From: Candidatus Woesearchaeota archaeon
GTDB taxonomy: Archaea; Nanobdellota; Nanobdellia; Woesearchaeales; ARS49
NCBI GenBank assembly: GCA_017609645.1
Contig: JAFCDQ010000003.1
Location: forward strand, 221,571-285,570
Length of the DNA: 64,000 nucleotides
Direction: 5' to 3'
In this document: in pieces, positions 16,189 to 22,819 of the stretch
Layout: each line of letters opens with the position of its first letter
How positions within the stretch are numbered: the first letter of the stretch is position 1
Program-made: the position numbers and the translations under genes
The notes under the pieces: generated by a model
What the model was told of the DNA's origin: nothing
Database searches by the model: none
The model's input: the letters and a program-made list of their open reading frames with translations, nothing else

Positions 16189-18105
16189 ATGGGTGGAGAA
16201 GAAAAGACTAAAAAAGATAGCCAGAAATACGGCGCTGAAGAGATTCAGATACTCGAAGGTCTAGAACCAGTTAAGAAAAGACCGGGTATGTTTATTGGTT
16301 CTACTGATATTAATGGTCTGCATCACCTTGCTTGGGAAGCTGTGGATAATGCTATTGATGAAGTCTTGGCAGGCCATGCTACTGAAGTTAAAGTTACTGT
16401 CCAAAAAGATGGCTTCTTATCTGTTGAAGATAATGGAAGAGGCATTCCAGTTGATCCTCATCCTAAATACAACGACATCTCTGCATTAACAGTTGTTCTT
16501 ACTGTTTTGCATGCAGGAGGTAAGTTTGAAAAAGGAGCTTACAAAGTAAGTGGAGGTCTTCATGGAGTTGGTATTTCTGTTACAAATGCTTTGAGTGCTG
16601 TTTTGAAAGCAGAAATAAAAAGAGATGGCAAAATTTGGTTTCAGGAATTTCATAAAGGTGTACCTGAAGAACCTGTTAAAACTATTGGAGATACTGATAA
16701 AACAGGCACTAAGATTACTTTTAAGCCAGATCCTGATGTTTTTGAAACAACTGAGTGGAATTACAATATTTTGTCATCTAGGCTCAGAGAACTTGCTTTT
16801 TTGAATAAAGGTGTTAATATTATCCTTAAGGATGAAAGAAATGGTAAAAAGGATGTATATTATTATGAAGGCGGTATTAGTGAGTTTGTCAAGTATATTA
16901 ACAAAGGTAAGAAATCTATTTCTAAGGTAATTTATATTGAGAAAGATAAGAATAATGTTAATGTTCAGGTTGCTTTGCAGTATACTGTTGATTTTCGTGA
17001 ATCAGTGTTTTCTTTTACTAATAATATTAATACTCATGAAGGTGGAACTCATCTTACAGGATTTAAGACCGCATTAACAAGAGTGTTAAAAAGTTATGCA
17101 GAGAAGCATAAGCTTGTTGATCAAAAAGTAAAGCTTTCTAGTGAGGATTTTAAAGAAGGTTTGACTGCTATTGTTTCGGTTAAAGTTCCTGAGCCTCAGT
17201 TTGAAGGTCAAACCAAGACTAAATTAGGAAACAGTGAGGTTAAAGGTATTGTTGATAGCGTTGTTACTGAGAAACTTAATGCTTATTTTGAGGAAAATCC
17301 TGCTGATGCTAGGTCTATTTTGAGAAAAAGTATTGACGCTGCTCGCGCTAGAGAAGCAGCTCGTAAAGCTAGAGAATTAGTCAGAAGAAAAGGAGCTTTA
17401 GATACTGCTATGCTTCCTGGAAAGCTTGCTGATTGTTCTAGTAAAGATACAAGCAAGACAGAATTGTTTCTTGTTGAAGGAGATAGTGCAGGCGGCAGTG
17501 CTAAGCAAGGTAGAAGCAGGGAGTTTCAGGCTATTTTGCCTTTAAGAGGTAAGATAATTAATGTTGAAAAAGCCAGATTGATTAAAGTTTTGAAGAATGA
17601 AGAAATTGGCACAATTGTTACTGCTACTGGCACTGGTGTTGGCGAGGAATTTGATATTAGCAAGTTAAGATACGATAAGATTATTATTATGACAGATGCC
17701 GATGTTGATGGTAATCATATTGCTTGTTTGCTATTGACATTTTTCTTTAGGCATATGCGCCCATTAATAGAAGCTGGCAAAATTTATCTTGCTATGCCTC
17801 CTTTGTATAAAATTAGCAAAGGTAAGAAATTTGTTTATGTTTATAATGAAGAAGAAAAAATCAAAGTAATTAAAGAATTTGGCGAGCCTGTTAATATTCA
17901 AAGATATAAGGGTCTTGGTGAGATGAATCCTATTCAATTATGGGGAACTACTATGAATCCTGAAACTAGAACATTAAAGAGGATTGAGATTGAAGATGCA
18001 GTAAGTGCTGATAATATTTTCAAAGTTTTGATGGGTGATGAAGTAGCTCCTAGAAGAGCTTTTATTGAAGATCATGCTAAAGAAGTTAAAGAATTAGATG
18101 TTTAA
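16189..18105 (+). CDS. gyrB: DNA gyrase subunit B (short form); no gyrA in window
   Basis: [60 protein letters not shown]. Confidence 0.95.
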
Positions 18106-18937
18106 GTTTTTTTCTTATGTCTTTTGGCACTGCTGACATGTATTTGTTTTTTACTTCATTAATATCAGGTCTATTTTCATATTCAGGATCTCTCATTTGA
18201 TTTATCAGTTCTTTCATTATTTTATTGTTTACTAAAGGTGCTTTTTTGTATTTTGGCAGAGTCTCTAACAACTTTTTGTATGCTTTGCAATCTTTTTCAC
18301 AATTGCCTTGAAGAACTTTTGTAGAATCTAAAGGAAGAGGATCATTCATCTGCAGTATTCTATATAAAATTGATCCTAAGCTGAAAATGTCAGAATTTTT
18401 GTTTTGGTCACTTTGCAATAATTCTGGTGCTGTAAAACCAATGAACAGAAAATAGTCGTCTATAAAAACTTTATTTTTCAGACTTCTCATAGCATCATAA
18501 TCTATTATTTTTGGATTATTTTGATGTATATGAAATAATATATTTAAATCATTTAAATCTCCATGAACTAAATCTTGTGATATTAAATATTCAACTCCTT
18601 TAATTAATCCTCCAAATGCCACTAAATTTTGTTCAAGCAAAAAGATGTTTTTATGATTTGTTCTTGATGCTAAATCAACTTCTCCGCAGTATTCAGAAAT
18701 TCTAACTCTAGAATCAGGCAATACTTCATAAACTTCCATTAAGTTTGGATGTTTTATTTGTGTGAAATCGACTTTTTCTATTTCAAAAGGCATTAATTTA
18801 TGGCTAAATTTGTTAATTTTAACCACTGCTTTTTCTCCATTATGTTCTGTTAAGAAAACATGACTTAAGCCGCCTTCTCCTAAATGTTCTAATTCATACT
18901 TTGGCAGAATTTTTTGCAATTTTGCCAAAATATCCAT
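18086..18937 (-). CDS. Hanks-type Ser/Thr protein kinase with atypical catalytic loop; start at 18937 after an AGAGGAG RBS
   Basis: [43 protein letters not shown]. Confidence 0.85.
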
Positions 18938-19046
18938 ATCTCCTCTTATTTCTAATTTCCTTGTTTTCCTAGAATCATTGACATAGCTCATATATTATAG
19001 AATTCCCGCTTTCTTTAATAAATTTTCTACTGTCATCACTCTAGAA

Positions 19047-20602: not shown

Positions 20603-20617
20603 GGGTGAGAAATAAAA

Positions 20618-22819
20618 ATGAGTTTAGAAGAAGATATCCAAGAAGAATTTGATGAAAGATTTAGTGAAGAAGATATTAATAAATTTAAAGAAAAAGAAAT
20701 ACTGCCTCAAATAGTAAATAAATATGATAAAAGATTTGATGTTGAAGATGTTATTCGTTTAATTGAAAATAATATCGCGCACATACATGCTAATCGCTAT
20801 GATAAAAGATTTGGTGCTTGGTCAATTTCCATATTATTTTCAGCTCGAATTTTTCCTCAAAAAGCAAATAAGTATAAACAAAAGGTGTTGGAAATTAAAA
20901 AATTAGTTCAGGCCAAGGTCCCTGCTGAAGCAGCTAATCAATATGAAACAAGATTTTGTTGCAAAGATATAATAAGACTGCATAAATCTAAAGTTACACC
21001 TGAAAAAGCTAAAGAATATGGGAATCGTTCTTGCGGAAAAATAATTGCTTTTGTTCAGGCAAACATTCCGCCAGAAAAAACAAATCAATATTTTCCTAAA
21101 TTATTGTATTATATGGATAAATCACCTTATTATTCTATACATTCAATTGAAGAACTCATTAAAATTGAAGAAAGCGGATTCAGTTTTTTAGATATCAATT
21201 GGTTAAATGGTGCTAAGATTTCTCCAGAGAAAGCTGCTGAATATGATGAAAAGTTAAATATCCAATGCATAATAGATTTAATTAAAAATGATATCTCTCC
21301 TGAAGTAGTTCAAAAGTATAATAGATTCTTTAGAAAACTAGATATAACTGCTAAAGACATAATTGATTTAATTAAAAAAGGAATTTCGCCAGAAAAAGCT
21401 AATGAATATGGTCCAGAATTTAGTGGAGAATTAATTGCTGAATTTTGTGAAAAAAATATTTCTGTTGAGCAAGCTAAAAAATATAAAAAAAGATTCAAAT
21501 ATGATGAAACAATATTGACATTAGTAAAAGCAGGAATGTCAATAGAGAAAGCCGAAAAATATAACCAAAAATTTTCGGATATACAGCTTAAGGCTTTGAT
21601 TAAAGCAAATATTTCTCCTGAACAAATAAAAGAATACCCTAAAATATTTGATGGTTATGACCTTATTGAATTAGTTGAAATGAACATTTCTGCTAAGCAA
21701 GCAAAAGAACATCTTACACAATATGATAAAAGATTTGGTTCTAGTATTATAAAATTAATTAAAGCAAAAGCTGAGGAGTATTATCCACGATTTAATGGAG
21801 AAGAAATAACAGAATTAACTGATAAAAGAATTTCTCCTGAAATAGCAAAAAATTATGATATTAGGTTTTTCGGAAGCGAAATTGTTAACTTAATAGAAAA
21901 CGAGATTTCTTCAAAAGAAGCTGATAAATATAACAAAAATTTTAGAGCATTTCATATAATAATTTTGCATAAATTAGGCGCGGACTATAAACTTGCTGAA
22001 AAAGAAGGATTATTCGATTTATTGGGCGACATAATTAATAATAAAGAAGTTGAAAACAATCTAGAACAATTTAAAATTTTAGGCGCAGGAGCTTCTGCAG
22101 CAGTATTGTTAAAAGAAAATATAGCATGGAAATTTTCATTAGAAATCGCTGAAGAATATGAAATATTAAAAAAGATTCAACAAAAATATAAAGGAAATCA
22201 AAAAAATGTTATCAAACTCATCAGAGAACCTAAAGAAAAAATTGCTCTTGAAATTGAATACATAAAAGGAAATTCTCTTGAAAATCTAATTAAAGAAAGC
22301 AATTCTTTATCCAGCGAGAAAGTAATAAAATATTCTTCTGACATTATGAATGGTTTAATTGAAATGCGTCAAGCAGGCATTTGGTATCATCGTGATATTC
22401 GTCCTGCTAACATCATAATTGATGAGGAAAAGGACAGAGCTGTTATTATTGATTTAGGTAAAGCAACTACTGATAAAAATGCTTTGCAAATTGACAATTC
22501 TCGTTTTGGAGCTCCTAAGATTAAAGGATTTCTTGCTAATGATTTAATTTCATTAGGGCAGGTAATTTATTATATGGCTACAGGAGAGCATATTTTTGCA
22601 GAATCTGAGAGTCAAACTAGAACTTTTAGTGATCTTCTTGAGGAAATCAATGATTATAGAAATAAAGTTTATGCAGATAAAAGTGGAGAATTGTTAAAGA
22701 AACATTTGAAGGAGATTGATGAAACAATAGAAGACAAAAAAGTAAGATATTTTATTAAAGCGTGCTTGACTTCAAAACATTATGATTATACAAAAATAAA
22801 AAGAATGTTTAAAAAATAA
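20618..22819 (+). CDS. Protein with about 16 helical repeats of about 25 aa fused to a C-terminal protein kinase domain
   Basis: Consensus ISPEKAxEYxxRFxGxxIxxLIKxx over about 20700-21975; kinase LGAGASA, AWKF, HRDIRPAN, IIDLG, NDLISLG. Confidence 0.85.
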   Translation: MSLEEDIQEEFDERFSEEDINKFKEKEILPQIVNKYDKRFDVEDVIRLIENNIAHIHANRYDKRFGAWSISILFSARIFPQKANKYKQKVLEIKKLVQAKVPAEAANQYETRFCCKDIIRLHKSKVTPEKAKEYGNRSCGKIIAFVQANIPPEKTNQYFPKLLYYMDKSPYYSIHSIEELIKIEESGFSFLDINWLNGAKISPEKAAEYDEKLNIQCIIDLIKNDISPEVVQKYNRFFRKLDITAKDIIDLIKKGISPEKANEYGPEFSGELIAEFCEKNISVEQAKKYKKRFKYDETILTLVKAGMSIEKAEKYNQKFSDIQLKALIKANISPEQIKEYPKIFDGYDLIELVEMNISAKQAKEHLTQYDKRFGSSIIKLIKAKAEEYYPRFNGEEITELTDKRISPEIAKNYDIRFFGSEIVNLIENEISSKEADKYNKNFRAFHIIILHKLGADYKLAEKEGLFDLLGDIINNKEVENNLEQFKILGAGASAAVLLKENIAWKFSLEIAEEYEILKKIQQKYKGNQKNVIKLIREPKEKIALEIEYIKGNSLENLIKESNSLSSEKVIKYSSDIMNGLIEMRQAGIWYHRDIRPANIIIDEEKDRAVIIDLGKATTDKNALQIDNSRFGAPKIKGFLANDLISLGQVIYYMATGEHIFAESESQTRTFSDLLEEINDYRNKVYADKSGELLKKHLKEIDETIEDKKVRYFIKACLTSKHYDYTKIKRMFKK

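Follow-up and report, generated by a model that had tools for sequence, protein, structure and literature searches.

We analysed a 64,000-nt stretch of a Candidatus Woesearchaeota archaeon genome (contig JAFCDQ010000003.1, positions 221,571 to 285,570 of the forward strand; hereafter the window), in which three protein kinase genes are arranged around a gene for a protein with two Fis-type domains. The genome belongs to Woesearchaeota (DPANN), has a size of 1.125 Mb in four contigs, and is about 90% complete. We refer to the Fis-Fis protein as FF and to the three kinases as K1, K2, and K3; FF and K1 make up unit A, and K2 and K3 make up unit B. Our analysis indicated, with a probability of about 0.68, that the locus brings together by chance two separate units: FF with a fast-evolving kinase that is specific to the genus, and an accessory repeat-kinase together with its truncated duplicate.

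An earlier, sequence-only reading of the window had proposed that the four genes form one cytoplasmic signalling, defence, or effector module. The linkage of the genes in other genomes spoke against a single module. The four-gene arrangement was not found in any other genome. Of 121 genomes sampled from the order (one per family), 40 had FF, and none of 29 order-level FF loci had a kinase nearby (tblastn with K1, K2, and K3; 1.5-kb flanks). K2 and K3 were absent from all four close-relative contigs (L036, L037, L038, and L039), and another species of the same genus (G122) had no K1 between FF and gyrB. The cytoplasmic part of the proposal stood, because all four products look cytoplasmic; a role in defence or as effectors is possible, with no specific support.

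Unit A is flanked by gyrB (16189–18105, plus strand), which is convergent with it and conserved in the genus. K1 (18086–18991, minus strand, 301 amino acids) overlaps gyrB by 20 nt at the 3' ends, and FF (19047–19706, minus strand, 219 amino acids) is separated from K1 by 55 nt. The order FF-K1-gyrB was kept in all four close contigs, where FF was 73–85% identical, K1 was 287–302 amino acids long and located on the FF strand 35–232 nt downstream of FF, and gyrB was convergent. L036 and L038 extend to metK, and the contigs of L037 and L039 stop within or just after gyrB. In G122, FF and gyrB (L072, 1501–2151 and 2140–3642) overlap tail-to-tail by 12 nt without a kinase between them, and the K1-like gene of that species (31% identity) lies on a different contig among unrelated neighbours. 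FF and gyrB were thus adjacent in five of the five genus lineages examined, and gyrB adjoined FF at none of the 29 order-level loci. Because K1 is missing from this position in G122, FF-gyrB is the stable frame within the genus, and K1 is an insert in four of its five lineages.

We compared the window with L036 by amino acid identity and by nonsynonymous and synonymous substitution rates (dN and dS). The identities were 86% for GyrB (dN 0.095, dS 0.63), 95% for MetK (dN 0.039, dS 0.67), 90% for the ABC exporter, and 85% for FF (dN 0.091, dS 0.77), and the identity of K1 was 43% (dN 0.536, dS 1.2). The dN of K1 exceeded that of FF or GyrB by a factor of about 5.7; dS is near saturation here and saturated for pairs beyond the closest, so these selection estimates are rough. 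K1 homologues were also few, with seven found among 5.8 × 10^9 proteins, and its close matches in 41 related genomes were confined to the same genus.

FF is a tandem Fis-type protein, as the sequence-only reading had described it. Membership in HTH_8 (Pfam PF02954, cut-off 22 bits) was found for the C-terminal copy (43.3 bits, residues 175–212). The N-terminal copy was weaker and aligned with the C-termini of the NorR and NtrX models, and the two halves aligned with each other (BLAST, 1e-4). The AlphaFold2 model of FF was all-helical (pLDDT 74.7) and showed two copies of one pattern, in which a long helix precedes a three-helix helix-turn-helix. Both domains matched the DNA-binding domain of NtrC4 in Foldseek (TM-score 0.78–0.80, root-mean-square deviation 1.3–1.9 Å, 36–38% identity). 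From the repeated helix pattern and the NtrC4 matches it follows that FF is the Fis/NtrC DNA-binding dimer in single-chain form. It resembles Fis and the NtrC-family DNA-binding domains (NtrC4, ZraR, and NtrX) in that each half matches the NtrC4 domain and the C-terminal copy passes the HTH_8 cut-off. However, FF carries two domains in one chain instead of forming a homodimer, it has no AAA+ or receiver domain, and its host is an archaeon. Archaea are not known to have sigma-54.

The distribution of FF was lineage-wide and without a general kinase link. At least 292 homologues were found at 50–85% identity, and those with a named source were mostly labelled Woesearchaeota. The usual neighbour of FF, which again differs from the Fis/NtrC family, was a divergent gene for a Pol-beta-type nucleotidyltransferase of about 266 amino acids (14 of the 29 order-level loci), and TYW3 was often next.

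K1 is a soluble Hanks-type kinase. Its match to the Pkinase profile PF00069 (cut-off 31.7 bits) reached 100.3 bits across the full domain, and the ATP-binding elements were present (GEGGLSHV G-loop, K58), as was APE, with other letters at the DFG position. Despite the high rate, G38, G40, G41, E72, D145, N150, D164, P189-E190, and R274 were invariant among K1 relatives, which argues for a working fold. The catalytic loop HGDLNDLN (residues 143–150) is derived: relatives have HxDLKxxN, and Asn was found only in the window and in the closest relative (67% identical). The loop recalls the atypical kinases RIO and Bud32, whose loops are HGDL(S/T)xxN without Lys and which are active without the catalytic-loop Lys, and K1 also had a weak local RIO1 match. 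In contrast to these kinases, K1 is built as a complete Hanks kinase, with APE and helices alphaF-alphaI, and its relatives carry the loop Lys. Membership of RIO or Bud32 was rejected for all three kinases (RIO1, 17.3 bits against a cut-off of 22 for K1; arch_bud32, 24.7–32.3 bits against 125 for K2 and K3). FF and K1 would be co-transcribed in this arrangement, and K1 would phosphorylate a cytoplasmic target, for which FF is the obvious, unproven candidate.

Unit B occupies the interval between FF and the ABC exporter gene (22824–24623, minus strand; Pfam ABC_membrane and ABC_tran), which is the far conserved flank of this slot and is 74–90% identical in L036, L037, and L039. The content of the slot differed among these relatives. 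A CYTH gene was found in L039, and DIT1, nitroreductase, AsnC, NACHT/STAND NTPase, glyoxalase, and DeoC genes were found in L036 and L037. Where the window genome has K2-K3, the slot thus looks like a variable, defence-like island. No integrase, direct repeats, or hairpin repeats were found at the K2-K3 or slot borders. The NACHT/STAND NTPase of L037 is 774 amino acids long (3892–6216), and in L036 it is split into frames of 161 (3891–4376) and 525 amino acids (4639–6216).

K3 (20618–22819, plus strand, 733 amino acids) consists of an N-terminal repeat region (20645–22042) and a kinase domain (22061–22819). The domain matched PF00069 with 63.6 bits (residues 500–723) and has a GAGASAAV G-loop, K505, E513, HRDIRPAN, DLG, and a degenerate APE region. 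In the K3 family, K505, E513, H591, R592, D593, N598, D612, D642, and R681 were invariant, and HRDIRPxN, which was present in eight of ten members, is a family hallmark. The APE region was degenerate or deleted in most members, and some keep SPE or APK; DxxSLG of alphaF and the alphaH-I Arg were conserved. Foldseek matches of the domain were eukaryote-type kinases including TTK, PknB, and PRP4, and the best sequence matches in PDB had an E-value of 1e-10. By sequence and fold, the domain is an ordinary eukaryote-type kinase.

The N-terminal 475 residues of K3 formed a solenoid in the AlphaFold2 model, with about 17 units of a period of about 25 residues and pLDDT mostly of 80–90. In each unit a 9-residue helix alternates with a helix of 4–6 residues, and 47 units gave the consensus YDxRFxGxDIxxLxxxGISPExANK. 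We found no Pfam family for the region and no significant PDB sequence match for the repeat profile (best E-value 0.064), only chance matches to designed proteins; Foldseek results with the full K3 model were dominated by the kinase domain. An exhaustive HMMER search of 1.84 × 10^9 proteins found the repeat in 204 clusters. A kinase domain was also present in 49 of the 65 best repeat clusters, and a few repeat proteins carry thioredoxin, inositol monophosphatase, or peptidase C13 instead. Full-length K3 homologues numbered 11 in 5.8 × 10^9 proteins, and the repeat occurred in 6 of 151 genomes of the order and in 2 of 77 genomes of the window's family. The K3 family is rare and almost restricted to Woesearchaeota, and its members are an alpha-solenoid fused to a eukaryote-type kinase. 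The solenoid would bring in a partner or substrate for phosphorylation. A metagenomic protein of 1318 amino acids (P0140) joins inositol monophosphatase, 25-residue repeats, and a kinase in one chain.

In other Woesearchaeota, K3-family loci were tandem arrays of two to four paralogues, and FF was absent from these loci. At six of eight loci the array was followed by a convergent gene for a protein of about 311–317 amino acids that carries an AbrB/SpoVT domain at its N-terminus; an AsnC regulator was next in most of these six, and HAD genes were found in three. The loci L003, L004, L005, L066, L068, and L069 hold one to four K3-type paralogues with the AbrB-like protein, in a conserved and uncharacterised neighbourhood. 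Inositol_P-HAD genes lie inside the L004 array, and with P0140 they hint at a tie between the K3 family and HAD/inositol monophosphatase phosphatases. In the window's own genome (G000), one of five AbrB-like paralogues is directly upstream of a 382-amino-acid kinase open reading frame (C2:79873–80751 and C2:81010–81606), so the pairing of an AbrB-like gene with a kinase recurs within this genome. We rejected the HAD gene of the window as a partner of K3, because its linkage to the ABC gene was kept in a relative without K3.

K3 can be compared with the Hanks Ser/Thr kinases that have repeat sensors, such as PknB/Stk1 with PASTA repeats, kinase-TPR fusions, and ArnC/ArnD of Sulfolobus. It shares with them the fold with G-loop, beta3 Lys, alphaC Glu, HRD, Asn, and DxG, a non-catalytic repeat on the same chain, and transcription-factor genes nearby. 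In contrast to them, its repeat is an undescribed 25-residue helical unit without a Pfam or PDB match, its family has Arg for Lys (HRDIRPxN) and a degenerate APE, it has no transmembrane segment, and the window genome yielded neither a PP2C_2 nor an FHA partner. A literature search found nothing on the protein families of this locus.

K2 (19874–20602, plus strand, 242 amino acids) lies 15 nt upstream of K3. It had been described as a truncated kinase, and this was borne out: its PF00069 match (74.1 bits) begins at model position 43, the protein starts at helix alphaC, and no N-lobe remnant was found upstream of the ATG, where all three frames are filled with stops. The G-loop and beta3 Lys are absent, and HRD, Asn, the Asp of DFx (DFA in K2), and an open frame are retained. 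K2 was 51% identical to residues 513–732 of K3, with 75% nucleotide identity in a 300-nt core (family D2), and was the sister of K3 in the maximum-likelihood tree, with a branch of 1.26 against 0.18 (about 7 times longer). It was farther than K3 from every outgroup (for example, 45% against 60% identity). Judged from these comparisons, K2 is a local duplicate of K3 minus the repeats and strands beta1-beta3, and its evolution is seven times faster than that of K3. The pairwise dN/dS of K2 and K3 was 0.36 overall and 0.23–0.28 in the core, with dS of about 1.2; splitting it by the 7:1 branch ratio gives roughly 0.6 for K2 and 0.1 for K3.

K2 would be unable to bind ATP in the usual manner. Either it serves K3 as a regulatory, pseudokinase-type partner or as a decoy, or it is a duplicate in slow decay. 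Kinase-pseudokinase pairs include the plant tandem kinase/pseudokinase proteins and JH1/JH2 of JAK. K2 is like them in duplicating an adjacent, active-looking kinase, losing the ATP-binding elements, and keeping the C-lobe. However, K2 has a gene of its own instead of being a domain fused to another, the whole beta1-beta3 sheet is gone and not single residues, and it may simply be decaying.

The catalytic loops of the three kinases are non-standard, as had been noticed before. None has HRDxKxxN: Lys is replaced by Asn in K1 and by Arg in K2 (HRDIRPAN, residues 98–105) and K3 (residues 591–598), and each of the three retains the catalytic Asp and Asn. K1 and K3 also retain the metal-binding Asp beside the catalytic Asp and Asn. 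The hint at tyrosine kinases that had been drawn from these loops was weak. The PF00069 scores of K1, K2, and K3 given above exceed those of the Tyr-kinase profile PF07714 (56.8, 42.6, and 27.2 bits), the Pro of HRDxKPxN is kept, and the Asn of K1 is recent; the Arg of K2 and K3 is at a Src-like position, alongside the Ser/Thr-type Pro. It had also been thought that such kinases are unexpected in a reduced genome. This was not so, because Pkinase matches were found in 40 of 41 relatives with genomes of 0.6–1.7 Mb, with 2–14 matches each, and the 13 matches of the window genome are at the high end of this range. Membership in known defence kinases (BREX PglW, MADS Mad6, PD-T4-6, and Stk2), judged by curated cut-offs together with partner genes nearby, was rejected. 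The scores were 40–58 bits against 460 for Mad6 and 27–32 bits against 990 for PglW (NCBIfam), and the PADLOC matches to mad6, PD-T4-6, and PglW were no better than the generic Pkinase score.

Several points weigh against reading the locus as two separate units. The adjacency of FF and K1 in four of five lineages could be a real functional pairing that was lost in G122. Some K1 copies may be inactive, as suggested by the catalytic-loop Lys to Asn change in the window and the closest relative and by Arg at the beta3 Lys position in two other K1 relatives. The rate comparisons share the dS near saturation mentioned above, and the support for the K2-K3 sister grouping (91/89) was under the strict threshold. 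Finally, neither PP2C_2 phosphatase nor FHA domains, the two families searched, were found in the window genome, so the usual partners of Hanks signalling are missing.

The reading in which the three kinases and FF are one cytoplasmic signalling module, with FF controlling the divergent kinase genes and the kinases acting on FF, could draw on the tight packing, the shared 167-bp divergent spacer, and the recurring proximity of kinases and regulators at K3-family arrays beside AbrB-like and AsnC genes. We consider it improbable, because the four-gene set occurred in no other genome, no kinase was found at the 29 order-level FF loci, K2 and K3 are absent in close relatives, G122 lacks K1 at the site, and FF is conserved at 50–85% identity whatever the kinase content. 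Another reading regards K2-K3, and possibly K1, as conflict genes for anti-virus defence or host interaction in a variable island. The NACHT/STAND NTPase and other accessory genes in the slot of the relatives, the patchy distribution of K3, the very fast evolution of K1 and K2, and the generic matches to mad6, PD-T4-6, and PglW accord with it. However, those matches are far under the curated cut-offs and no better than generic Pkinase, the partner genes of BREX and MADS are absent, the slot borders have neither integrase nor direct repeats, the proteins have no export signal, and K3-family arrays in other genomes lie among housekeeping genes, so that this reading appears rather unlikely. A bolder version, which we would also give little chance, is that K1 is a diversifying private kinase, kept by every species of the genus and wired to FF as a Fis-like chromatin protein and to gyrase. 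Phosphorylation of FF or GyrB would then retune DNA topology and global transcription on contact with a virus or host, and K3/K2 would be a sensor made of a kinase and a pseudokinase, in which the solenoid offers a rapidly changing surface for recognition. If this were true, reduced DPANN archaea would rely mainly on fast-evolving Hanks kinases for conflict and signalling, in place of two-component systems.

It is a tentative possibility, somewhat stronger than the foregoing ones, that K3 alone is active, K2 being a decaying remnant and K1 of the window a pseudokinase through its Lys to Asn change. K2 lacks beta1-beta3, its branch is 7 times that of K3 and its implied omega is about 0.6, and the K-to-N change of K1 is derived. 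Nevertheless, K2 has an open frame of 242 codons in a region of 28% GC despite about 50% divergence from K3, it keeps HRD, Asn, and the DFx Asp with TATA-like and GGAGG signals of its own, and its core dN/dS is 0.23–0.28. The Asn of K1 is common to a relative with 67% identity and hence has persisted, and the activity of RIO and Bud32 without this Lys is a known precedent. The least probable of the alternatives, in our opinion very unlikely, is that K3-family enzymes are small-molecule (inositol or sugar) kinases paired with HAD or inositol-monophosphatase-type phosphatases. HAD and Inositol_P-HAD genes in or right after the arrays, the P0140 fusion, the degenerate or deleted APE of most members, and weak Pfam matches to APH and choline kinase favour it. 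On the other hand, the fold and best matches are those of eukaryote-type protein kinases, alphaF DxxSLG and the alphaH-I Arg are conserved, some members have SPE or APK, and the HAD gene of the window goes with the ABC gene instead of K3 and is not similar in sequence to the array-linked HAD genes.

The reading as two separate units corrects the attractive, unsupported picture of a four-gene module. It yields three testable objects in the poorly known DPANN archaea. The first is a very fast-evolving small kinase fixed behind a conserved Fis-like protein and gyrB. The second is a rare kinase family with an undescribed 25-residue repeat and an Arg-type loop that grows by local duplication, and the third is a natural kinase paralogue without N-lobe, possibly acting as a pseudokinase partner. 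In these 1-Mb genomes, kinases of the eukaryotic type are a normal component that varies, which bears on the self-regulation of such symbionts.

The four open reading frames, their strands, and their divergent order agreed with the placement in the sequence-only reading, and the 167-bp intergenic region between FF and K2 was measured at 19707–19873; their further neighbours are gyrB, the ABC exporter, and a HAD hydrolase. The hydrophobicity of every 19-residue segment was at most 1.10 in all four proteins, against 2.75 in the neighbouring ABC transporter, so no transmembrane segment or signal peptide is evident, as had been stated. The spacer is AT-rich. In a reading of its sequence, the centre of a TTTATA on the opposite strand lay about 26 nt ahead of the FF ATG, and on the K2 side TTTATAAA preceded the ATG by about 40 nt and GGAGG by about 8 nt. 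These elements are candidate archaeal TATA and Shine-Dalgarno signals. A promoter and terminator scan of the locus gave nothing above shuffled controls; its models are bacterial and the host is archaeal.

Just past the end of the window, an open reading frame of 5103 amino acids (G000 C2:300407–306004) had two sub-threshold Pkinase matches (30 and 27 bits), and giant proteins of this genome may embed kinase-like domains. Elsewhere in the window, two 26-nt copies (4245–4270 and 4318–4343) are similar to the sequence of tRNA-Lys that covers its T-arm and 3' end (26054–26079; GGxGTTCGAATCCCC...). Neither ARAGORN nor Rfam called a tRNA in the intergenic region 4133–4617 that holds both copies. The copies may be tRNA fragments, may belong to a tRNA that is split or contains an intron, or may be what is left of attachment sites. 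The open reading frame at 27653–28369 contains dense, imperfect, Lys/Glu/Pro-rich coding repeats at 27973–28358 (AAAGAAGAAAAACCTGCAGAA...) that make up a long KE-rich tail, and a 206-amino-acid open reading frame upstream of FF in G122 (L072, 78–698) has a tail similar to it.

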